From the NCBI GenBank assembly GCA_964619405.1, contig CAZUCF010000005.1, positions 1 through 61,589 of the forward strand: DNA of 61,589 nucleotides, given 5' to 3'. Positions 1 through 52,630 of the stretch are shown piece by piece (the first letter of the stretch is position 1; each line of letters begins with the position of its first letter). The translations under genes and the position numbers were made by a program. This DNA is from an uncultured archaeon. GTDB lineage: Archaea > Iainarchaeota > Iainarchaeia > Iainarchaeales > JAAZKV01. A model generated the notes under the pieces. The model made no database searches. It had not been told where the DNA came from and saw nothing but the letters and a program-made list of their open reading frames with translations.

Positions 1-185
1 AAAAACACTAAAAAAAACAAAAAATAACCAAATCAACTACTTTTGTCCCAAAACCTTTGTTATGGATATTCTTTTATATTTCAAAAACTTATTTATAATA
101 TAATTATATTGTAATTAATTATAATTATCATAATTAATTGTGGTTTTTGTGATTGGTTTTGTGATTATTTTGTTTGGTGCTTTTA

Positions 186-3100
186 ATGGTTTTAAGAAAT
201 TCTTGTAAGAGTTCTATTGCTCAAGGTACTATTGAGTACTTGACCATTATGGGCGTGGTTATTGTTATTAGTTTAGTTGTGGTAGTTTTAGCTTCTAATG
301 TTTTTAGTGGGAATGATGTTGTTTTGGATGCTAGTCAAGATATTTCTTTACAGTTAAAAGAAATTGCTATTCTTGATGTTTTGTTGTCTCCTGATGGGAA
401 TTATATTGTTAGTTTGCAATCTAATTTAGTTGAGAATGTTACTATTACAAGAATTAGTTTTGATGATGCTTTTGAGGATTTTGTTAGTAACAATGTTTTA
501 ATGCTTAGAAGCAAAAAGATTTTTTTGGTTAGTATTCCTGATTTGAGGAGGCCTGATCGTTGTGTTAATGGTTCGCTTTTAACTAAAACGATTACTATTA
601 GTTATACTACTTCTCATGGTTTGGCTAAAACCCAATCTTTTTCTGGTTTGAGGGTTCCTTGTCAAGAATATGGTTTTAATGATGATATTGTTGCTTTGAG
701 TGATTGTGAGGTTGGCGAGTTCAAGCTTGGTAATGAGTGTGTTGTTTGTGCAAATAATGTTGAAGGGTTGTTTGCTTATGGTTCTGGAACAAGTAGTGAT
801 CCTTATTTGATTTGTAGTTGGGAACAATTAAATAATGTTAGGGAAAAATTGAGTAGTAGTTTTTTACTTGTTAATGATTTGGATTCAAGTAGTACTGGTT
901 ATGCGGATTTTGCTTCAGACACTGCTAATAATGGTGTGGGCTGGTTATCAATTGGGAATGAATTAAATCCTTTTGTCGGGATTTTTAATGGTGGTGATTA
1001 TTCTATAAGTGATTTGTATATTGATAGTTCGGGCACATCTGCTGGTTTGTTTGGTTTTACTAATTCTGCTATTTTATCTAATGTGAATTTATTGGATGTG
1101 ACTGCTGTTGAACAATCAGCAAATTATACTGGTGGTTTGATTGGTTATTCTATAAGCACAGTAATTAGTGATTCTTCTGTTTCGGGTAGTGTGGCTGGTG
1201 GGGCTTATGTTGGTGGTTTGGTTGGTTTGGCGGAGGATAATAATATTAAAAATTCTTATAATTTAGCATCAATTTCTTCTGGTGCTGATGCTGGTGGTTT
1301 GATTGGTTCTGATAATTCTAGTGTTTCAACAAGTATTACTAGTTCGTATAATACTGGTGTTGTTGATGGTTTTAGTAATGCTGGTGGTTTGGTTGGTTAT
1401 AGTTCAAGTTCAATAAGTGTTTCTAGTTCGTATAATACTGGTGCAATTTCAAGTGATTCTCTAGCGGGGGGTATTGCTGGTTATTTTGGAGCAAATAGTT
1501 TAATTGAGGGTTCTTATAATTCGGGAACAATAAGTGGTTTTGAGTATTCTGGTGGTATTGTTGGTAATGGTTTAGGTGACATAAATAATTCAAAAAATTC
1601 AGGGGTTATTTTGAATAGTGATGTAGGTGGTTATGCTGGGGGTATTGCTGGTAATTTTAATGGTACAATTTCTGATTCTTATAATGCTGGTAGTGTGACT
1701 TCAACTTATAATTATGCTGGTGGGATTGTTGGGCAAAGTTCTAATTCAATTTCTTTGAGTAATTCTTATAATCGTGGTGCGATAATTGGCGGGGTTAATA
1801 ATTTTGAACATTGTGATATGTTGGATTGGAGTTATTGCAATAATTTTTCTGGTAGTCCTGATGATTGTTATGGTGCTAGTTGTGAGTGGTATGAAGATAT
1901 TTGGATGGGTTGGTGTGTTGGAGGAGGAGAGTGTGATCCAATTTGGGACCCAGGGGAGTGTGCTGCTAATCCTAATTGTTATTGGGAAACTTTTGGTATA
2001 TGTGAGACTGCTTGTTGGAATTATGATTATGATGAGTGTAATGATAATTCAGTACAATGTTATCCTGTTGGTGATGTTTATGGTGGTGCTGGGGGTATTG
2101 CTGGTTTATTAAATACTGGTAATGTTAATTATTCTTTTAATACTGGTGCTGTTAGTGGTGGGGCTTTTTTAGGCGGGATTGTTGGTGGTGAATTAAGCAT
2201 GTGGTCAATTTCTAATTCTTATTGGGAGTCTAATTTGAGTGGGCAATCAGATTGTTATACTGGGGGCAATGTTGGGTGTTCTTCTACTTCTAGTGGTGCT
2301 TCTGATTATTATTCTTCTAGTAATCCTCCTTTGAGTTCTTGGGATTGGGGTGTTGGTGGTGATTGGTTAGAGGTTGGTTCTTCTTATCCTATGCTTACTT
2401 GGGAAGGAGTGAGTACTCCAATAGTTTCTTTGTCTTCTCCAGCAAGCAATGCTTATTTATTACCTAATGAAATAATTTTTAGTTATACTGTTTCAAGTGC
2501 TTTTTATGACATTAATTATTGCAAGTTTTATGTTGATAGTAGATTAATTGAAACTGATAATTCTATTTCACAGGGAGCAAATTCTTTTACTTATAGTTTT
2601 TTAGAGCATACTCCTGAAGAAGGCGTTTATTATTGGGATGTTATTTGCACTGATAGTTCTGGTGTTTCTTCGAGTAGTGTTGAACAAACTTTTAATGTGT
2701 TTTTTGTTGAGCCATCAATTAGTTTGTCAACACCCGATGATGAAATATATTTGCCTAGTGTAATTGATTTTGTTTTTACTCCGTCTTTTACTTATCCTAT
2801 TACTAGTTGTGATTTATTATTAAACGATGTTGTTGTTGATTCTGATGATAGCATTGATAATAATTCTTCAAACACTTTTTCTGTAACAGTTAATGATGTT
2901 AACGAGTATTCTTGGAGTGTGAGTTGTACTGCTTTTAATAATGAGGTTGAAAATAGCAGTAGTCTTGATTTTAATGTTGTTTCTGTTTGTCCGAGTGATT
3001 TGGTTGAGTATAATGGTATGTGTGTTGAGTGTGTTGAGGATTCTGGGGGATTGTATTTTGGTGGTACTGGTACTGCTGTGAATCCTTATTTGATTTGTAG

Positions 3101-4274
3101 TTGGAATCAATTAGCTAATATTAATAGTAATTGTTCAAAGAATTTTAAGTTGTTAAGAAACTTATCTGATGCTGATGATGATTATGTAACTTACGCTTCC
3201 CCCACAGCAAACGATGGAAAAGGTTGGCAGGCTTTGTGTAACAATGCTTGGGGTTTAGATGGTTATTTTAATGGTAACAATCACACAATAAGTGATTTAC
3301 ATTCAATTGGTAATTCTTATGGTTGTTTATTTAAACAGATTGATGGGAATGTTTCAAATTTAGGGATGATAGATGTTAATATCAGCGGAGCGACTCGCGG
3401 TGGAGGAATTTCTTGTAGCACTTATGCTTATTTATCTAATGTTTATGTTACTGGAAGTGTAAGTGGAAGTGATGTTGGAGGATTAGCTAGTTATATTGGT
3501 GGTAGTCGACCAACGGGTATTGAAAATTCGTATAACCTAGCAACTATTAGTGGGAGTAGTGAAGTTGGTGGTTTAAGTGGTTCTAGTGAGGGGGGGTCTA
3601 GGTATCCAAAAAAAATAATTAATTCTTATAATAGTGGAATTATAACATCGACTGATTATGCGGGTGGTTTAATAGGGCATGGTGAGTATGTACAAATATT
3701 TAATTCATTTAATGATGGATCGGTTTTTGGAGAAAGAATAGTTGGGGGTTTAATTGGTCTAAATGATGGTGGAAAAATATATAATTCATATAATTTAGGT
3801 TACGTAACAGGAAATTCAGATCATGTAGGTGGTTTAACGGGGTATGATAGATATGCTTTTGTTATAGAAAATAGTTATAATGTTGGAGATGTTGATGGGG
3901 GGAGTAATACTGGTGGATTAATAGGGTTTTTTACTTTTGCTAATGTGGGTAATTATGTGAAAAATTCTTTTTCAACGGGGCTTGTTACTGGAGATGTTAA
4001 TGTTGGAGGATTAATTGGTTGGAGAAGAGACGATTTTGTTAATAATCGTTTTATTGTTGCAGATAATCTTTATTGGGATACTATTTTATCGGGGCAGGAT
4101 CATTGTAATGATACTAATGAACAAGGATGTGTTTCTACTAGTACAGGAAATGCTTCTTATTATTATTCTTCTGCTAATGCTCCTTTGAGTTCTTGGACTT
4201 GGGGAGAAGATGGTAATTGGACAGCAAGAGACAATAATTATCCTATTCTAACTTGGCAGGTAGAAGACAGTTAA
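186..4274 (+). CDS. Large surface/adhesin-like protein: class III (pilin-like) signal peptide, two GLUG-repeat beta-helical modules, Ig-like domains, Cys-rich segments
   Basis: N-terminus ...SIAQGTIEYL plus hydrophobic stretch; many GGLIG/GGIAG (GLUG-type) repeats; motif G.GT..DPYLICSW.QL occurs twice. ATG at 186 preferred over the TTG at 174. Confidence 0.8.
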   Translation: MVLRNSCKSSIAQGTIEYLTIMGVVIVISLVVVVLASNVFSGNDVVLDASQDISLQLKEIAILDVLLSPDGNYIVSLQSNLVENVTITRISFDDAFEDFVSNNVLMLRSKKIFLVSIPDLRRPDRCVNGSLLTKTITISYTTSHGLAKTQSFSGLRVPCQEYGFNDDIVALSDCEVGEFKLGNECVVCANNVEGLFAYGSGTSSDPYLICSWEQLNNVREKLSSSFLLVNDLDSSSTGYADFASDTANNGVGWLSIGNELNPFVGIFNGGDYSISDLYIDSSGTSAGLFGFTNSAILSNVNLLDVTAVEQSANYTGGLIGYSISTVISDSSVSGSVAGGAYVGGLVGLAEDNNIKNSYNLASISSGADAGGLIGSDNSSVSTSITSSYNTGVVDGFSNAGGLVGYSSSSISVSSSYNTGAISSDSLAGGIAGYFGANSLIEGSYNSGTISGFEYSGGIVGNGLGDINNSKNSGVILNSDVGGYAGGIAGNFNGTISDSYNAGSVTSTYNYAGGIVGQSSNSISLSNSYNRGAIIGGVNNFEHCDMLDWSYCNNFSGSPDDCYGASCEWYEDIWMGWCVGGGECDPIWDPGECAANPNCYWETFGICETACWNYDYDECNDNSVQCYPVGDVYGGAGGIAGLLNTGNVNYSFNTGAVSGGAFLGGIVGGELSMWSISNSYWESNLSGQSDCYTGGNVGCSSTSSGASDYYSSSNPPLSSWDWGVGGDWLEVGSSYPMLTWEGVSTPIVSLSSPASNAYLLPNEIIFSYTVSSAFYDINYCKFYVDSRLIETDNSISQGANSFTYSFLEHTPEEGVYYWDVICTDSSGVSSSSVEQTFNVFFVEPSISLSTPDDEIYLPSVIDFVFTPSFTYPITSCDLLLNDVVVDSDDSIDNNSSNTFSVTVNDVNEYSWSVSCTAFNNEVENSSSLDFNVVSVCPSDLVEYNGMCVECVEDSGGLYFGGTGTAVNPYLICSWNQLANINSNCSKNFKLLRNLSDADDDYVTYASPTANDGKGWQALCNNAWGLDGYFNGNNHTISDLHSIGNSYGCLFKQIDGNVSNLGMIDVNISGATRGGGISCSTYAYLSNVYVTGSVSGSDVGGLASYIGGSRPTGIENSYNLATISGSSEVGGLSGSSEGGSRYPKKIINSYNSGIITSTDYAGGLIGHGEYVQIFNSFNDGSVFGERIVGGLIGLNDGGKIYNSYNLGYVTGNSDHVGGLTGYDRYAFVIENSYNVGDVDGGSNTGGLIGFFTFANVGNYVKNSFSTGLVTGDVNVGGLIGWRRDDFVNNRFIVADNLYWDTILSGQDHCNDTNEQGCVSTSTGNASYYYSSANAPLSSWTWGEDGNWTARDNNYPILTWQVEDS

Positions 4275-4450
4275 TAATTTAGTTCAAATAATAGTGGTTA
4301 GAAAATAAGCATTAATTTAAATAAAAAATTACCTTTAGTTTAGTTATTTGTTTTTTTTAATTATTAAATAAGTTTAATTTTTTATTTTAATTTGAAATAA
4401 TTATTTTTTTGTTTTTTATAAAAATGTATTGTTTTTTATTGATATTTTTT

Positions 4451-4575
4451 AATCAACCCAAAAGAAATCTCCAACGTTTACGTTGGAGTTTGAGATTTCT
4501 TTTCCGTTGACGGAAAAGTGAATACTTCTGCTGTAAACCAGCAGAAGCCACACCCTTTAGGGTGTGGTAATTCAC
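4451..4575 (+). mobile_element. 125-bp non-autonomous IS200/IS605-type element / TnpB omega-RNA-like scaffold, copy 1
   Basis: 124/125 identical to 14599-14723; four hairpins; ends GAAGCCACACCCTTTAGGGTGTGGTAATTCAC, typical of IS605-group right ends (subterminal hairpin + TCAC). Confidence 0.7.
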
Positions 4576-4674
4576 AATTTGTATTTTAAGTATTGTTTTT
4601 TTGTAAATTTGTTTTGATTAAAAAAGTTTTTTCCCAATCGCAATGTTTATTTATGTCTTTTACTTATTATTCTA

Positions 4675-12293: not shown

Positions 12294-14030
12294 TTATTTC
12301 TCATTTTTTGTTTTTATTTCTTCTAACAATTTTCTTTCTTCTTCACTGAATTCATCAATGTATTTGTTTAATTCACAATATTGTTTTGTTGGTATGCAAG
12401 TATACAATTTTTCTCCTTCAAAAAGATTTTTTCCAACATTGCCATCGTCTATTGCTATTGCTACTTCATCACCTTTTTTTGCTTCCTTTACTTTTTCGCC
12501 CTCGCTTTGTATTCCAGTTAGTTTTCCAATTATTTCTCCTTGTTCGTTTATTATTTTCCAGCCTTCTTTTAATTTTCCTTCTTCTATTCGCACTCCAATA
12601 ATTGCTGGTTTGTTGTTTCTAAAAACTTTTCCTTTTAGGAATTGTATTTTTGCTGGTAGTACGAGACAAGAAAAACTTTGTTCTTTCTGAATTTTTTTGT
12701 TTTTTTCAACCCATTCAAAATAATTTTCTATTATCTTGTAAATTACTTTGTCATTAAAAATGGTTATTTCTCTTAGATTTGCTTCTTTTTCAGCATCCCT
12801 ATCAATATTAACATTGAACCCTATTACTACTCCTAAGTATGTGTCCTCGCAAGCTATTGATGCTGCTTCCATAATGTCTTTTCTATTTATGTTTCCTATT
12901 TCAGCTTTTTTCACGCTAATATTTTCTTTTTTAAATAATTCTACTATTGCTTCAAGTGAACCAATTGCGTCTGCTTTTATTATTAGGCCTTTGCCGTCTG
13001 TTTTAAAAAAACTTTTTTTTGCTTCCATTTCTAATTCTTTCACATCATCTTCTTTTTGAATAGTTATTAATGTTGAACCAACTAGTACTTCGTCAAGGTT
13101 TGGCGCAGAAATTTTTAATCCTGATGCTGCAAACGCTTCTTTTACACTAAAAAATTTTTCTTTTGTTTCAAGCATTTCTTCGAGTGGTTTTGTTTGTAAT
13201 AATGCTCTTATTTTTGTTTTTATTATACCATTTTTTCCTATTACAGCGATTTCATCATTTACTCTTATTTTTCCTTCGTACAAAATAATATCAATTGTTT
13301 TTCCTAATCCTTTTTCTTCTTTTGCTTCTAACACTGTTGCTTTTGCTTTTTCATCTAGTTTTATTTCCAAATTTTTTTCTAAATATTTTTGACTTAGCCC
13401 AGCTAGCAAAGTTAGTATTTCTGGTAACCCTTCTTTTGTTTTTGCTGAACATGGTACTATTGGGATTTGTTTTCCAAATTCGCACCTATCAAATCTTTCA
13501 CTTTGAAAACCATTTTCAAATATTTTTCCAATTAAATTATATAGTTTTTCATCAACCCTTGCTTTTACTTCTTCGCTTTGTTTATTAAAATTTGCGATAA
13601 AACTACCTTCTTTTGAATCATAATAATGAATCATATCTATTTTGTTCATTGCTATTATGAACGGGACTTTGTTTATTTTCAAAATATTTATTGCTTCAAT
13701 TGTTTGTGGTTGTATGCCTTGCATTGCATCAACAACAAGTATTGCTAGGTCAGCAATACTTCCTCCTCTTTTTCTTAGGTTTGTGAATGCTTCGTGTCCT
13801 GGCGTGTCAATAACAAGTAATCCAGGAATCTTTAAATCAAAACCAAATTTTTTTATTAGTTCTCCAGCAATTTTTTTTATTGATTCGATTGGTATTTCTG
13901 TTGCACCAATGTGCTGGGTTATAGCGCCTGCTTCTTTAGCAGCTACTCTTGAAGAGCGTATTGCGTCAAGCAAGCTTGTTTTTCCATGGTCAACATGGCC
14001 CAGCACGGTTATTATTGGTTTTCTAATCAT
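12294..14030 (-). CDS. infB: Translation initiation factor aIF5B/IF-2
   Basis: [40 protein letters not shown]. Confidence 0.97.
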
Positions 14031-14032
14031 TT

Positions 14033-14569
14033 TTATTTCCTCTTTGGTTTGGATTTTGCGTATTCTTCTTGATCACTTTTTCTATCGCTTTCTATTGGTT
14101 TGTATTTTTCTCTTTCAGAACCACAGTAAATCCAATTGAAATTTAATTGGTCGTATTCAAAAAGTTCTTCTTCTTTAAAGAATCTTTTTATTTCTTGTTC
14201 GGCAACATCATTGTTTTCTGACGCGTGAACAATGTTAGTTTGAATGCTCATTGCATAGTCTCCTCTTATTGTTCCAATATCTGCTTCTCTACCATTTGTT
14301 GAGCCAACGAGTGTTCTAACAACTTGCACTGCTTCTTTTCCTTCTAAAACCATTAGAACGCATGGTATACTTGTCATGTAATTTAATAGTTCTTGGTAGA
14401 ATGGTTTGCTTTGTAAGTGTGAGTAATGATCCTTTAATGTGTATACATTGAGCCTTTCTAATTTTAACCCAATTATTTTCAATCCTTTTCTCTCAAACCT
14501 TTTTATTACTTCTCCAACCAAGCACCTATTCACACCGTCTGGTTTTACTATTACTAATGTTCTTCGCAT
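14033..14569 (-). CDS. ndk: Nucleoside diphosphate kinase
   Basis: [21 protein letters not shown] catalytic His. Confidence 0.97.
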
Positions 14570-14598
14570 ATAACCCGCCCCGATTTTTTTCCAATTTT

Positions 14599-14723
14599 AA
14601 TCAACCCAAAAGAAATCTTCAACGTTTACGTTGGAGTTTGAGATTTCTTTTCCGTTGACGGAAAAGTGAATACTTCTGCTGTAAACCAGCAGAAGCCACA
14701 CCCTTTAGGGTGTGGTAATTCAC
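14599..14723 (+). mobile_element. 125-bp IS200/IS605-type element / omega-RNA-like scaffold, copy 2, between rpl24e and ndk
   Basis: Near-identical to 4451-4575 (one C>T at 14619); flanks are unrelated beyond an upstream TTTT. Confidence 0.7.
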
Positions 14724-14735
14724 TATTTTAACGTA

Positions 14736-14951
14736 TTATTTTTTTTCACTTGCTTTTGTTGATGCTTGTAAAGTTTTTTTCATTTTGTTGTATGCGTTCG
14801 TCCACTTTGTTTTAATTGGTTTTCTTTTCATTTGAACCATATTTTTCTCGCATTTGTTTGTACAAAAATAACTTATACTCCCATCTTTTTTTGCAAATAT
14901 TTTTCCAGTTCCTTCGGGAATATCTATTCCACAAAAACTACATTTAACCAT
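14736..14951 (-). CDS. rpl24e: 50S ribosomal protein L24e
   Basis: KCSFCG.DI.EGTG...FCTNKCEK. Confidence 0.95.
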   Translation of the reverse strand: MVKCSFCGIDIPEGTGKIFAKKDGSISYFCTNKCEKNMVQMKRKPIKTKWTNAYNKMKKTLQASTKASEKK

Positions 14952-14977: not shown

Positions 14978-15187
14978 TTATGCTTTTATTTCTTTTGCTT
15001 CTCTTTCAGTATCCAACAAAAGTATGATGTCTCCTTTTCGAATTATTCCCAAAGTGTTTCTCCTCTTTACACGACCTTTTTCTGGGCCTTCAAGAATTCT
15101 ACACAAAATTTGGGTTATTTCGCCGTGCACACCAGTTGATTTAACAATTTCAACTACTTCTGCAGGTGTTCCCATATCGTTTCCCAT
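14978..15187 (-). CDS. rps28e: 30S ribosomal protein S28e
   Basis: TG..GEITQ..CRILEG...RN..G..RKGDI..L..TEREA. Confidence 0.95.
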
Positions 15188-15195
15188 TTTTTCAC

Positions 15196-15555
15196 CTACT
15201 TTCTTAATTCCTCTATTTTTGCGCTCAACTCTTTTATTTCTTTTTCAGCAGAGCTCTCTATTATTGCAATCGCACTTGTAGCCATTCTTAAACCAGCTTT
15301 TTCTCCAAGCTCTTTTCTTGTTTCAATATAAGAGCAAGCAATATTTTTTTCCTTGCACAATATTGGTAAATGCATTACTATTTCTGCAGGAGAAACATCT
15401 TCTGCTATCACAACTAATTTTGCATTACTTCTCTCAATTGCTTTTGTTACTTCGTTCAAACCAGCTTTGATTTTTCCTTTAACTGATTTCTCAATTATTT
15501 TTTTTGTATCATTTTTTAGAGCATCGCTTAACTCTACTTTAACATATTCAGTCAT
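15196..15555 (-). CDS. rpl7ae: 50S ribosomal protein L7Ae
   Basis: [29 protein letters not shown]. Confidence 0.97.
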
Positions 15556-40300: not shown

Positions 40301-40586
40301 TATTCACTGGAAGAAGTTTTTGTTCTTTTTTTAAAATTTCTTACTATTTGTCATTAAAAAACCATTTGAACAATTTATTTCTTAAAGAAATAGATTTTTT
40401 CTTAATTGTTTTTGCTTATTTTTAATTTTAATTACAATTTATTGGATTAAATTGTGTTTTTTGATTAATTGTTGTTGTATTTTTAATTTTTGTTTATTGA
40501 ATTAAATAGTGTTTTTTGATTAATTACTATCCTATTTCTTTTCTTTGTAGTTCTTTGTCAAAAAATAATTATGTAGCATTAAAGTT

Positions 40587-40700
40587 GTTTGTTTATTTTA
40601 ATTTAGTTTGTTGATTTTTGTCTAGTTTGTTTATTTTAATTTAGTTTGTTGATTTTTGTCTAGTTTGTTTATTTTAATTTAGTTTGTTGATTTTAGTCTA
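40587..40700. repeat. Tandem repeat, 3 x 38 bp (each unit is two degenerate 19-mers)
   Basis: GTTTGTTTATTTTAATTTAGTTTGTTGATTTTTGTCTA at 40587, 40625 and 40663 (one mismatch in copy 3). Confidence 0.9.
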
Positions 40701-40772
40701 GTTATTATTTTTTTTAAATCATTTTTTGTTAACTATTATTTATTTTGCTTTTTTTTGTTTGACTTCATTTTC

Positions 40773-41708: not shown

Positions 41709-41861
41709 ATTATAACAATATTTCAAAAGTATTTAAATGTTATTTTCAAAAAAATAATTATTATTTTTAAAAAATAAAACAAGTCTCGTTCATTATTAAA
41801 AACGAGCTTGTGTTTAATAATTCTTAATTTTTTTAAGAATTCTTGGTTTTATTTTTGTTTT

Positions 41862-41920
41862 GTTTGTTTTTATTTTAAATTGGTTTGTTTTTATTTTAAA
41901 TTGGTTTGTTTTTATTCTAA
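41862..41920. repeat. Tandem repeat, about 3 x 21 bp, overlapping the stop codon of the 41912-42232 gene
   Basis: GTTTGTTTTTATTTTAAATTG at 41862, 41883 and (partial) 41904. Confidence 0.75.
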
Positions 41921-43203: not shown

Positions 43204-43287
43204 TTTTTTTTATTTAATAATGATTAATATTTTTTATTTTATTTATTTGTTTTTTTTTATTTAATAATGATTAATATTTTTTATTTT
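43204..43287. repeat. 37-bp direct repeat (43204-43240 / 43251-43287) overlapping the rtcB stop
   Basis: TTTTTTTTATTTAATAATGATTAATATTTTTTATTTT twice, 10-bp spacer. Confidence 0.75.
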
Positions 43288-44444
43288 GTTTGTCTGTTTT
43301 CAATTCCCTTCCAATTAATTATTGGTTTTAAATGTTTGTGTATTTTCACACTTTCTTTTTGCGAGTTCATTACATCAAAAATGTTTTTGTAAGCAAAAGG
43401 GCTCTCGTCAATAGTTCCTTTTTCAATAACAGCTGTTATTCCTTTCATTGTGTTCTCGAATTCTTTCAAAGTTATTTTTTCTTTTACAGTTCTTTTACTC
43501 ATTGCTCTTCCAGCGCCATGACTACTTGATTCCAAAAAATTTTTGTTGCCTTTCCCAATAACCAAAAAAGTTCCATCCCTCATGTTTCCAGGAATAACTC
43601 CTTTCTCTCCTTTCTTGCTTGGAGTCGCCCCCTTCCTATGAATAAAATTATTTGTTTTTCCTATTCTCTCTGCATTATTATGGTTTTTGTTAGCCCAAAC
43701 AATCCATTCTACTTTTTTATTAATTGTTTTCTCAAAAATATTAATAAAATCTCTTGCTATTTCAAGTCTATTTAGTAAAGCAAATTCTAAGCAAAATTCT
43801 AGTATTACTAAATATTCTTTTCCTATTGTTGATCTAACATCAAAACCAAATGTTCTCTCAACATTTCCTTTTTCACCATTCAATTCCATTGCTTTTCTCA
43901 TATAGTGTTCAGCAATATGGTGTCCAACATTTCTTGAACCAGAGTGAATTATTAACCACAAGTCTTTTCCAGAAGTATCAAGTTCAATAAAATGATTGCC
44001 GTGTCCAACTGTTCCCAAATTGCTTTTTGCTTTTCTCTTAACCCAATCAACTAATTCCTTGTCTTTCAATTTTTTGTCGAGTTTAGAAAAAATTTTTTCA
44101 AACTCTTTTTTTCCTTCAATGCTTAATCTGTGTTCTGCTCTTAATTTTCCTAAACCCATTGGTATTTCTTTTTTAATTTCAAGAAAAATTTTTTGAGAAT
44201 TATTGTTTACTTTTGGTAAAAGGTTTTTCCCATTGATTTTTATTGCTGTTACGCCACAACCAATATCGTATCCAACCCAAGATGGAACAATAACTCCTTT
44301 TGTTATTAGCACTGAACCAATTGGCGCAACATAACCATAATGAGCATCAGGCATTAATGCTCCGTCAACAACAAAATCTTGTGAAAAGCATTCTTTGAAT
44401 TGTTTTAAAGTTGATTCATCAATATTTTTAACAAATACTTTCAT
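43281..44444 (-). CDS. rtcB: RNA-splicing/repair ligase RtcB (short, bacterial-like)
   Basis: MPDAH.G, VGYDIGCG, G.GNHFIE, IHSGSR, NHN, HRKGAT, SHGAGR, DESPFAYK. Confidence 0.95.
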   Translation of the reverse strand: MKVFVKNIDESTLKQFKECFSQDFVVDGALMPDAHYGYVAPIGSVLITKGVIVPSWVGYDIGCGVTAIKINGKNLLPKVNNNSQKIFLEIKKEIPMGLGKLRAEHRLSIEGKKEFEKIFSKLDKKLKDKELVDWVKRKAKSNLGTVGHGNHFIELDTSGKDLWLIIHSGSRNVGHHIAEHYMRKAMELNGEKGNVERTFGFDVRSTIGKEYLVILEFCLEFALLNRLEIARDFINIFEKTINKKVEWIVWANKNHNNAERIGKTNNFIHRKGATPSKKGEKGVIPGNMRDGTFLVIGKGNKNFLESSSHGAGRAMSKRTVKEKITLKEFENTMKGITAVIEKGTIDESPFAYKNIFDVMNSQKESVKIHKHLKPIINWKGIENRQTK

Positions 44445-51541: not shown

Positions 51542-51616
51542 TTTTTTTAAAAAATTTTTTTTCCTCGGTACGATACTTGTGAAATGTTTATAAGGAATTA
51601 TTCTGTTAACGTTATT

Positions 51617-52630
51617 ATGGTTAAAGATATTGTTGTTAGGAATTCTACAATAGATTTCTTAATTTTTACAAAAGATTCTGGCGAAAACATTGAAGCCAAG
51701 TTTTTTGATGATAATGTTTGGTTAACACAAAAATTAATTGCTAAGCTCTTTGATGTAGATAGAAGTGTAATAACAAAGCATTTAACAAATATTTTTGAAG
51801 AGCAAGAATTGAATAGTAATTCAGTTAGTGCAAAATTTGCACACACTGCTGCAGATGGCAAAAAATATAATACATTTTTTTATAATTTAGACGCGATTAT
51901 CTCGGTTGGTTATAGAGTAAATTCCAAGAGGGCAACGGATTTTAGAATTTGGGCAACAAGAGTACTAAAACAATTTGCGATTAAGGGTTATGTGTTGGAT
52001 AGAAAGCGATTAGAAAACGGTTCTTTTTTAAATAAAAATTATTTTGATGAATTGTTATCTGAGATAAGAGAAATTCGTTTGAGTGAAAGAAATTTTTATC
52101 AAAAAATAACTGATATTTATTCAACTAGTATTGATTATGATAAAGAAGCAAAGATAACAAGAGATTTTTTTGCGAAAGTACAAAATAAATTACATTATGC
52201 GATACATGGACACACTGCTCCTGAACTAATTGCAAAACGCGCTAATGCAAAAAAACAAAATATGGGTTTGACTTCTTGGAAGAATTCTCCACAAGGAAAA
52301 ATAATCAAAACGGATGTTTCAATTGCCAAAAATTATTTAACAAAAACAGAATTAGAATCATTTGGAAGAATAGTTAGTGCTTATCTTGATTTAGCTGAAG
52401 AAAGAGCAAAAAGAAAAATTCCAATGACTATGGAAGATTGGGCAAAAAGATTAGACAAGTTTTTAGAATTTGATGAAAGAAAAATTTTGGTTAATGCTGG
52501 TGAAATAAATTCAAAAAAAGCTAGAGAAATTGCGGAAAAAGAGTTTGAGAAATATCGTTTAATTCAAGATAAGTTATTTGAATCAGATTTTGATAAACTA
52601 TTCAAAAAAACAAAGAAATTGGAAAAATGA
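51617..52630 (+). CDS. RhuM-family (virulence RhuM / COG3943-like) protein
   Basis: VWLTQK.IA.LFDV.RS.ITKHL.NIF, YNLDAIISVGYRVNS.RAT.FR.WA, SERNFYQKITDIY.TS.DY, VQNKLHYAIHGHTA.ELI. Confidence 0.9.
   Translation: MVKDIVVRNSTIDFLIFTKDSGENIEAKFFDDNVWLTQKLIAKLFDVDRSVITKHLTNIFEEQELNSNSVSAKFAHTAADGKKYNTFFYNLDAIISVGYRVNSKRATDFRIWATRVLKQFAIKGYVLDRKRLENGSFLNKNYFDELLSEIREIRLSERNFYQKITDIYSTSIDYDKEAKITRDFFAKVQNKLHYAIHGHTAPELIAKRANAKKQNMGLTSWKNSPQGKIIKTDVSIAKNYLTKTELESFGRIVSAYLDLAEERAKRKIPMTMEDWAKRLDKFLEFDERKILVNAGEINSKKAREIAEKEFEKYRLIQDKLFESDFDKLFKKTKKLEK

Follow-up and report, generated by a model that had tools for sequence, protein, structure and literature searches.

The window analyzed here, a 61,589-nt stretch of archaeal DNA with about 30% G+C (contig CAZUCF010000005.1), carries two nearly identical copies of a short repeat. 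This repeat is very probably a 123-bp palindrome-associated transposable element (PATE), i.e., a gene-less, non-autonomous member of the IS200/IS605 family from the IS605-type lineage that inserts after (T)TTAA and ends in TTCAC. A first-pass annotation, made from the sequence alone, had suggested a non-autonomous IS200/IS605 element resembling PATEs or miniature inverted-repeat transposable elements, and this suggestion is borne out by an empty insertion site, by TTAA and TTCAC at the element's borders, by the IS608 cleavage rule at both ends and by a match of the right end to the covariance model R1. As in the definition of PATEs (PMC3119063), the repeat has no inverted terminal repeats, makes no target duplication, is too short for a protein gene, carries palindromes near its termini with a longer 5' spacer, and shares an end with IS605-type transposons. 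As a class of selfish DNA, PATEs are well known, and the repeat adds to them a compact IS605-type member from a DPANN-like archaeon. Copies that are 99–100% identical, a polymorphic insertion site and copy numbers that differ between strains indicate that the element was recently active.

The two copies are direct and on the plus strand, within matching stretches at 4447–4580 and 14595–14728 (99% identical), and no further copies or fragments of the repeat were found elsewhere in the 61.6-kb window. The near-identical pair described in the first-pass annotation as a 125-bp unit is real, with one differing base and with the bounds of copy 1 corrected to 123 bp (4453–4575). The mobile unit is 4453–4575 and 14601–14723. 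The TTAA at 4449–4452 is the target and lies outside the insert, because the empty site retains TTAA, and the TT at 4447–4448 is a chance match between the two flanks. Within the mobile unit, the sole difference between the copies is C4471 versus T14619, which converts the C4471–G4486 pair to T·G on the plus strand, so that pairing is kept there as annotated for the RNA (C–G to U–G), and gives an A/C mismatch on the minus strand. The four hairpins and the complementarity of GTGAAT to the terminal ATTCAC are likewise present as annotated. The element lacks terminal inverted repeats: its ends read TCAACCCAAA... and ...GGTAATTCAC, and an inverted-repeat search gave internal hairpins only. Its single open reading frame (ORF; 40 aa, minus strand) has no match in the gene collection or in an exact-protein look-up.

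Evidence of mobility comes from copy 2. A 517-nt contig from run X5 covers 14380–14600 and 14724–14900 with four mismatches and joins position 14600 directly to 14724. The joint skips exactly 123 nt ('TC..AC'), with a 1-nt ambiguity, and reads ...CCAATTTTAA/TATTTTAACG...; TTAA occurs once, with no duplication and no scar. This joint is the empty site of copy 2 in a related strain from another metagenome, and the flanks of the polymorphic site are about 99% identical between the populations. All seven distinct left flanks, collected from the window, contig L002 and the runs, end in TTAA; among window positions, only 1.2% have this tetranucleotide. Right flanks, of which at least eight were recovered, all diverge directly after TTCAC.

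The first-pass annotation had proposed counting the copies genome-wide, and sequencing depth gave different answers in different runs. Word depth in runs X1, X3 and X4 is 8.6, 10.1 and 12.8 for the flanks, and the element's central 91-nt unitig reaches a depth of 125, 132 and 158, a ratio corresponding to 12–15 copies per genome. The C variant of the left hairpin occurs at a depth of about 114–146 and the T variant at about 37–50, i.e., in about a quarter to a third of left ends; both variants have multiplied, since both are present at multi-copy depth. In run X2, where the copy-1 site is filled, one unbranched 287-nt unitig with the depth of the flanks contains the element, which therefore appears to be single-copy in that run. 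Run X5 contains a variant with GTGAAC in place of GTGAAT. The middle 22-mer of the element had no match in the genome collection and was found in the metagenome collection only in two contig-end fragments (L001 and L002), and the right-end 28-mer had five matches in the genome collection, all at contig ends. As a side observation, every assembly match, genomic or metagenomic (L001, L002 and L003–L006 of the metagenome-assembled genome WB02no2_33_12), is at the edge of a contig; short-read assemblies of these archaea break at the repeat.

The predicted fold of the element is far stronger than that of shuffled sequence (z = -8.5 on the plus and -8.9 on the minus strand). Such strong folding on both strands, together with the intergenic location of both copies and a G+C content above that of the surroundings, is what one would also expect of a host structured RNA or a cis-regulatory repeat (terminator or stabiliser) unrelated to transposition. 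We nevertheless regard this explanation as very improbable, as the insertion is precise and polymorphic, the copies sit in unrelated contexts and differ in orientation relative to their neighbours, and the end is homologous to transposon ends. Moreover, no Rfam family reached its gathering score; the best match at relaxed threshold was ncS025 (27 bits versus a gathering score of 46), and the matches at that threshold were chance-level hairpins only. Scans for tRNA and tmRNA found none. Ribozyme, H/ACA RNA and riboswitch identities were dropped, since no model gave a match and the empty site marks the repeat as mobile DNA.

The architecture of both ends follows that of IS608. In that element, TnpA binds subterminal hairpins, and cleavage occurs at the target TTAC, 19 nt 5' of the left hairpin, and at TCAA, 10 nt 3' of the right hairpin; these sites are recognised by the four bases directly 5' of each hairpin, AAAG for TTAC and GAAT for TCAA (PMC3201880, PMC5934647). 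A second hairpin 3' of the left subterminal one is typical of IS608, IS605 and ISDra2 (PMC5934647). The left end of the window element reads TTAA / TCAACCCAAAAG AAAT CTCCAACG TTTA CGTTGGAG, followed by a second hairpin, and the right end reads GAAG CCACACCC TTTA GGGTGTGG TAAT TCAC. The combinations AAAT/TTAA and GAAG/TCAC pair in the same way as those of IS608, with covariation at the fourth pair. Individual guide/site pairs were assigned in part according to what we take to be their arrangement in the IS608 crystal structures. From base composition alone, one would expect both guides with a probability of about 1e-5 to 1e-4, and the choice of position left no freedom at the right end and almost none at the left. 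A forecast from the rule (target TTAA, insert starting TCAACCC) was made before the empty site was seen, and the empty site agreed with it. The spacer between end and hairpin is 16 nt on the left and 8 nt on the right, an asymmetry also found in IS608 and PATEs.

The right end connects the element with tnpB genes. A blastn search of a phage and archaeal-virus collection returned one weak match (E 0.1), which was exactly the last 37 nt of the gene for a 409-aa 'putative transposase' of Acidianus two-tailed virus 2 (ATV2), in the gene's orientation. The protein is a TnpB, because it contains Pfam OrfB_IS605 and Cas12f1-like TNB domains. Its gene ends in GAAG CCTCACCC TTTA GGGTGGGG TAGCTCAC, and six more relatives from viral contigs show the same layout, with compensatory stem changes and tails TAGCTCAC or TAGTTCAC. 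R1, a covariance model of seven right ends of TnpB genes of Sulfolobales viruses from which the window sequence was excluded, matched the last 40 nt of each window copy with a score of 34.9 bits (E ~1.3e-6), and the matches stop precisely at 4575 and 14723. The copies in DPANN genomes were matched as well; nothing else in the 88 kb searched had a match with E <1. In the tnpB frame, the element ends ...EATPFRVW-stop and the relatives ...EASPFRVG-stop or ...EASPFRAG-stop, with the stop at -8 to -6 in each; in copy 1 this is TAA 4568–4570, the position of the tnpB stop codon in the relatives. The left end has no detectable sequence similarity to the left ends of Sulfolobales TnpB elements, so the shared end is the right one only. 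As the right 40–60 nt are homologous to the 3' end of tnpB and the 3' module of its guide RNA, we take the element to be what remains of an IS605-type transposon with tnpB after its interior was lost.

The borders point to the same lineage. In S. islandicus, the IS605-type TnpB has TTTAA both at the insertion site and as target-adjacent motif (TAM), with NTTAA equally effective, and the IS605 elements share the fully conserved end TTCAC, after which the guide begins (PMC11043419). The element in the window carries the same pair of target and end, (T)TTAA and TTCAC, and the earlier reading of its TTTAA junction as a TAM or target agrees with the TAM established there. A protein search with the ATV2 TnpB core joined to the DPANN tail yielded only Sulfolobales and Thermocladium TnpBs among the 120 proteins listed, and these show a conserved ...EASPFR(A/V)G tail. 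In a subgroup of Sulfolobales TnpB right ends (L015 2669–2708, L016 2273–2312 and L017 2662–2701), we also observed a second hairpin abutting the terminal one and GATG in place of GAAG; in L016, a Y1 tnpA lies upstream of tnpB.

Transposition of the element would require a partner. When the plus strand becomes single-stranded, the hairpins at 4469–4488 and 4548–4567 could form, as judged from their sequence potential, and a Y1 (HUH) TnpA encoded elsewhere, for which no gene was found, would bind both of them. The four bases 5' of the hairpins would then set the cuts by pairing with TTAA (AAAT) and TCAC (GAAG); the element itself shows this agreement with the rule, and the chemistry is inferred. 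The top strand would leave as a single-stranded circle, the donor would be resealed without a scar, and the circle would insert 3' of another TTAA without duplication. This last step is matched by the precise empty site, by TTAA at seven left flanks, by the lack of target duplication and by the 12–15 copies.

Several observations weigh against this interpretation. As the first-pass annotation had noted, the 61.6-kb window contains no tnpA or tnpB, according to both Pfam scans of its large ORFs and tblastn with archaeal TnpA and TnpB; seven DPANN loci that were examined contain none either, and the transposase is therefore assumed. Two protein-database searches gave no DPANN TnpB with this right end, one of them among 120 proteins listed. 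The empty site fits a site that was never filled and one that was precisely vacated alike, and the figure of 12–15 copies presumes that all of them reside in one genome. The left and right hairpin stems share only four of eight positions plus the TTTA loop, whereas the two hairpins of IS608 are nearly identical. Finally, if the minus-strand core genes are co-oriented with fork movement, the top strand would have the orientation opposite to that expected for insertion into the lagging-strand template, although this concerns two copies only.

The missing gene could also mean that the copies are immobile relics of a past burst, that no active transposase is left in the lineage, and that the copies persist as deletion is slow. 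No transposase gene was found in the window or in the DPANN loci examined, and in Haloquadratum most IS200/IS605 transposase genes are pseudogenes and PATEs are abundant (PMC3119063), which would suit such a scenario. So would the frame running through the right end in L007, which, read by eye, has an in-frame stop 29 codons upstream. We consider it improbable, however, given the 99–100% identity of the copies, the polymorphism of a site whose flanks are about 99% identical between populations, and the contrast in copy number between strains (12–15 in X1/X3/X4 versus a single unbranched unitig in X2). Two further repeat families (L007 1–96; runs X1/X3/X4) share the right end of the element or a covarying version of it, GAAG CCCCACAC TTTA GTGTGGGG. 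These families lie on unitigs of 413–418 nt at 2.5–3x genome depth, with the frame ending ...QEDIHQTNLSAY-stop open in both; they may be longer parents of the element. A protein search with peptides from the related repeat families gave no candidates. In viral contigs, five pattern scans returned nothing or chance matches (GC-rich phage terminators in L008 and L009; unrelated sequences in L019–L021), blastn against a plasmid collection gave one chance match, and exact look-ups of three window proteins found none on record.

The first-pass annotation had also raised the idea of a stand-alone guide-RNA scaffold acting in trans. Judged by its sequence, the element might be mobile and at the same time a working miniature omega-RNA gene. 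Its read-through RNA, ending in ...UUCAC followed by some 16 nt of flank, would associate in trans with a TnpB encoded elsewhere, or with a TldR that has lost nuclease activity; this protein would cut or bind empty TTAA-flanked sites, resulting in homing and retention or in gene regulation. We rate this additional function as unlikely. In its favour, the last 40 nt fit the TnpB right end and guide-RNA 3' module (R1), ending in UUCAC as in S. islandicus, and the tetraloop at -20 to -17 resembles the UUUA tetraloop of the ISDra2 guide RNA (PMC10097598). AUUCAC and GUGAAU pair with a probability of 0.86–0.98 in RNA folds that include the flank. R2, a model of the 130-nt guide-RNA region of four relatives, aligns GTGAAT to a long-range helix predicted for the Sulfolobales guide-RNA region. 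The hairpin 5' of the terminal one retains pairing through compensatory changes: the stem at 4525–4547 reads CTTCTCAT TTC ATGAGAAG in run X5 and GCGCGT WCTAA ACGCGC in the two further families, and GAAG is unchanged in the X5 variant, in these families and in TnpB right ends of the Acidianus two-tailed virus (ATV) type. To our knowledge, IS608-type TnpA does not need this hairpin, which favours a role in RNA. The C/T difference retains pairing on the plus strand only, although this is equally expected of single-stranded DNA recognised by TnpA. There is also precedent, as PATEs frequently carry trans-acting omega-RNAs according to a published report (PMC10055086) and TnpB7 of S. islandicus works with a guide RNA transcribed from another location (PMC11043419).

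Other features speak against a guide function. The 3' module and the terminal pairing are present, but a central domain of about 70 nt is missing: R2, with 130 positions, aligns only 4516–4575 and lacks 69 central positions. Only about 60 nt are right-end-like, and the left 65 nt correspond to a transposon left end. S. islandicus TnpB7 is inactive if the coding-derived part of the RNA is shorter than 113 nt, out of a total of about 176 nt (PMC11043419), and ISDra2 needs a 116-nt scaffold (PMC10097598). Of the covariance models, those of Rfam gave nothing at gathering score, R1 matched the last 40 nt and R2 matched the right half only. The terminal pairing, annotated earlier as resembling the 3' pseudoknot of omega-RNAs, is predicted, but as a nested helix rather than a pseudoknot; the GTGAAC variant in X5 weakens it, and a complementary hexamer is expected by chance in 3.4% of shuffles. 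Its upstream partner is ambiguous in the Sulfolobales relatives, so that covariation relative to the window element is not decisive. In addition, no archaeal TATA-like box was noticed inside the element by eye, no formal scan having been made, copy 2 is antisense inside a ribosomal-protein/ndk cluster, the window has no tnpB, and a search for RNA runs carrying the sequence returned none. The hairpin part of R2 gives a weak match (9.5 bits) at the left subterminal hairpin, and in RNA folds the hairpin at 4500–4517 competes with an outer stem around the first hairpin.

A more radical version of this idea, and a still less likely one, takes the 123-nt element for an independent guide-RNA gene in naturally minimised form, in which a scaffold of about 60 nt, predicted to consist of the closing helix, a hairpin and the terminal hairpin, would suffice for a DPANN TnpB or TldR encoded elsewhere. 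If so, the 12–15 dispersed copies would amount to a guide array spread over the genome, in which every copy targets the sequence of its own flank, and the element would be the smallest natural TnpB guide scaffold known, part of an RNA-guided system in a reduced symbiont genome. A compact right half functioning as a guide scaffold would be of interest for the design of miniature genome editors.

As a PATE, the element can be compared with several characterised systems. The IS605-type TnpB elements of Sulfolobales (tnpB1–8 of S. islandicus REY15A, including TnpB7, and those of ATV, ATV2 and SMV3) likewise insert after (T)TTAA and end in TTCAC. They share with it a right end composed of GAAG or GATG, an 8-bp hairpin with a tetraloop and an 8-nt tail TA(G/A)(C/T)TCAC, as well as a stop codon at the same position in the tail, and R1, which was built from them, matches the window copies. 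In contrast, they are 1.3–1.9 kb long and carry tnpB, with or without tnpA, whereas the element in the window has 123 bp and no gene; their left ends are G-rich and differ in sequence from that of the element, and they possess the central guide-RNA domain of about 70 nt that is absent here. Their hosts are thermoacidophilic Thermoproteota, as opposed to a mesophilic DPANN-like archaeon of wastewater and digesters. The PATEs of Haloquadratum walsbyi and Geobacillus stearothermophilus resemble the element in lacking inverted terminal repeats and target duplications and in having palindromes close to either end, a length too short for a transposase, a longer spacer between the 5' end and its hairpin, IS605-type ends and strain-specific insertions (PMC3119063, PMC10055086). 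They differ in host lineage and sequence, and for the window element no parent transposon was identified. Its 123 bp appear to be near the small end of reported PATE sizes, among which there are 52-bp terminal-only versions (PMC3119063).

IS608 of Helicobacter pylori shares with the element the subterminal hairpins, the guide tetranucleotides 5' of them, insertion 3' of a tetranucleotide without duplication, and the second left hairpin. It differs in target (TTAC versus TTAA), end (TCAA versus TCAC) and spacers (19/10 nt versus 16/8 nt), and it is autonomous, with imperfect, near-identical hairpins, whereas the stems of the element are perfect, 8 bp long and different in sequence. The ISDra2 omega-RNA of Deinococcus radiodurans is of similar size (a scaffold of 116 nt versus 123 nt for the element), has a UUUA tetraloop at -20 to -17, and its last pre-guide bases pair upstream (PMC10097598). 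However, in ISDra2 these bases pair with a segment about 100 nt upstream to form a true pseudoknot; the partner segment in the element is 47 nt upstream, and the predicted helix is nested. Stems 1–3 and the triple helix of ISDra2 are without counterpart in the element, whose left half is a transposon left end and not a guide scaffold.

Taken as a PATE, the element implies that single-strand transposition of the IS200/IS605 type was recently active in a small-genome DPANN-like archaeon, with one insertion inside the conserved rpl7ae–rps28e–rpl24e–ndk–aIF5B cluster and with copy numbers ranging from one to about fifteen between strains. Conservation of the right end with Sulfolobales TnpB elements (guide tetranucleotide, loop, tail length, TTCAC and stop position) ties this mesophilic DPANN element to an experimentally characterised TnpB lineage, and the predicted TAM of any cognate nuclease is TTAA/TTTAA. 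The repeat also explains assembly breaks in these genomes, and R1 provides a small model for finding such ends.

Table 1. Features of the two element copies in the window.
Feature	Position	Strand	Basis or remark
Target tetranucleotide TTAA, copy 1	4449–4452	+	Left cleavage site (C_L) and expected TnpB target-adjacent motif; outside the insert; 5' of every copy seen
PATE copy 1, 123 bp, TCAACCC...TAATTCAC	4453–4575	+ (active 'top' strand)	Empty-site joint; right flanks diverging after TTCAC
Left guide (G_L) AAAT, directly 5' of the left hairpin foot	4465–4468	+	Pairs with TTAA by the IS608 rule (A:T, A:T, A·A, T:A)
Left subterminal hairpin (IP_L), CTCCAACG TTTA CGTTGGAG, 16 nt from the left end	4469–4488	+	Read in the sequence
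Second small left-end hairpin, TTTTCCG TTGA CGGAAAA	4500–4517	+	Read in the sequence
GTGAAT, complement of terminal ATTCAC (4570–4575); 5' strand of a possible closing RNA helix	4518–4523	+	Fold and R2 alignment
Hairpin CTTCTGCTG TAAAC CAGCAGAAG; its last four bases, GAAG (4544–4547), are the right guide (G_R)	4525–4547	+	Read in the sequence
Right subterminal hairpin (IP_R), CCACACCC TTTA GGGTGTGG	4548–4567	+	Corresponds to the last stem of TnpB guide RNAs; R1 match
8-nt tail TAATTCAC; TCAC 4572–4575 is the right cleavage site (C_R)	4568–4575	+	Tails of relatives; IS608 rule
Hypothetical 16-nt guide flank, if a TnpB used the read-through transcript	4576–4591	+	Inferred; ISDra2 and S. islandicus guides begin right after the element end
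Target TTAA, copy 2, between rpl24e and ndk	14597–14600	+	Retained at the X5 empty site
PATE copy 2, T at 14619; antisense to flanking genes	14601–14723	+	X5 contig joins 14600 to 14724

Apart from the two copies, the window contains genes for Kae1, aIF2-gamma, EF1-alpha and RtcB, RNA polymerase genes and ribosomal-protein genes. DNA nearly identical to the window is present in wastewater, bioreactor, manure, digester and landfill metagenomes. The host is treated as a probable small-genome, AT-rich, mesophilic DPANN-like archaeon, because related repeats occur in the genome assemblies 'archaeon WB02no2_33_12' and 'Candidatus ainarchaeum sp. STD2_46', where they are at contig ends. Replication-strand bias was rejected as a test of the element, as GC skew in the window tracks gene orientation and no origin is known.

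Both copies are intergenic, and their orientation relative to the adjacent genes differs. Copy 1 is bordered by the gene of a 1366-aa GLUG-repeat protein on one side and by plus-strand ORFs on the other. The 1366-aa protein (174–4274), with GLUG motifs and internal duplications, is probably a surface protein, and its gene ends 175 bp upstream of the copy-1 target. Copy 2 occupies the gap between rpl24e and ndk, antisense to the two genes, within a minus-strand cluster of rpl7ae (15196–15555), rps28e (14978–15187), rpl24e (14736–14951), ndk (14033–14569) and aIF5B (12294–14030). The TTAA of copy 2 is part of a TATA-like A/T stretch (14569–14600) and precedes the minus-strand ndk start codon by 28–31 nt. 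The (T)TTAA target looks like an archaeal TATA box, and such elements may favour promoters as landing sites.

Other repeats and a possible accessory gene were noted elsewhere in the window. A 38-nt unit is repeated 3.1 times with 98% identity at 40587–40703 and adjoins a 55-nt unit present twice (40438–40548); both are located where two minus-strand ORFs are separated by 465 nt with a G+C content of about 21%, and this segment (40438–40703) could be an origin-like or regulatory region. Intergenic tandem repeats at 43204–43300 (47-nt unit, 2.1 times, 94%) and 41843–41920 (21-nt unit, 3.7 times, 89%) flank DUF4013 and RtcB genes. A RhuM-family gene at 51584–52630 (Pfam E 4e-107) is the sole long plus-strand gene amid minus-strand core genes; it lies in a low-G+C stretch beside an RNA polymerase subunit gene, and may be an inserted accessory gene.

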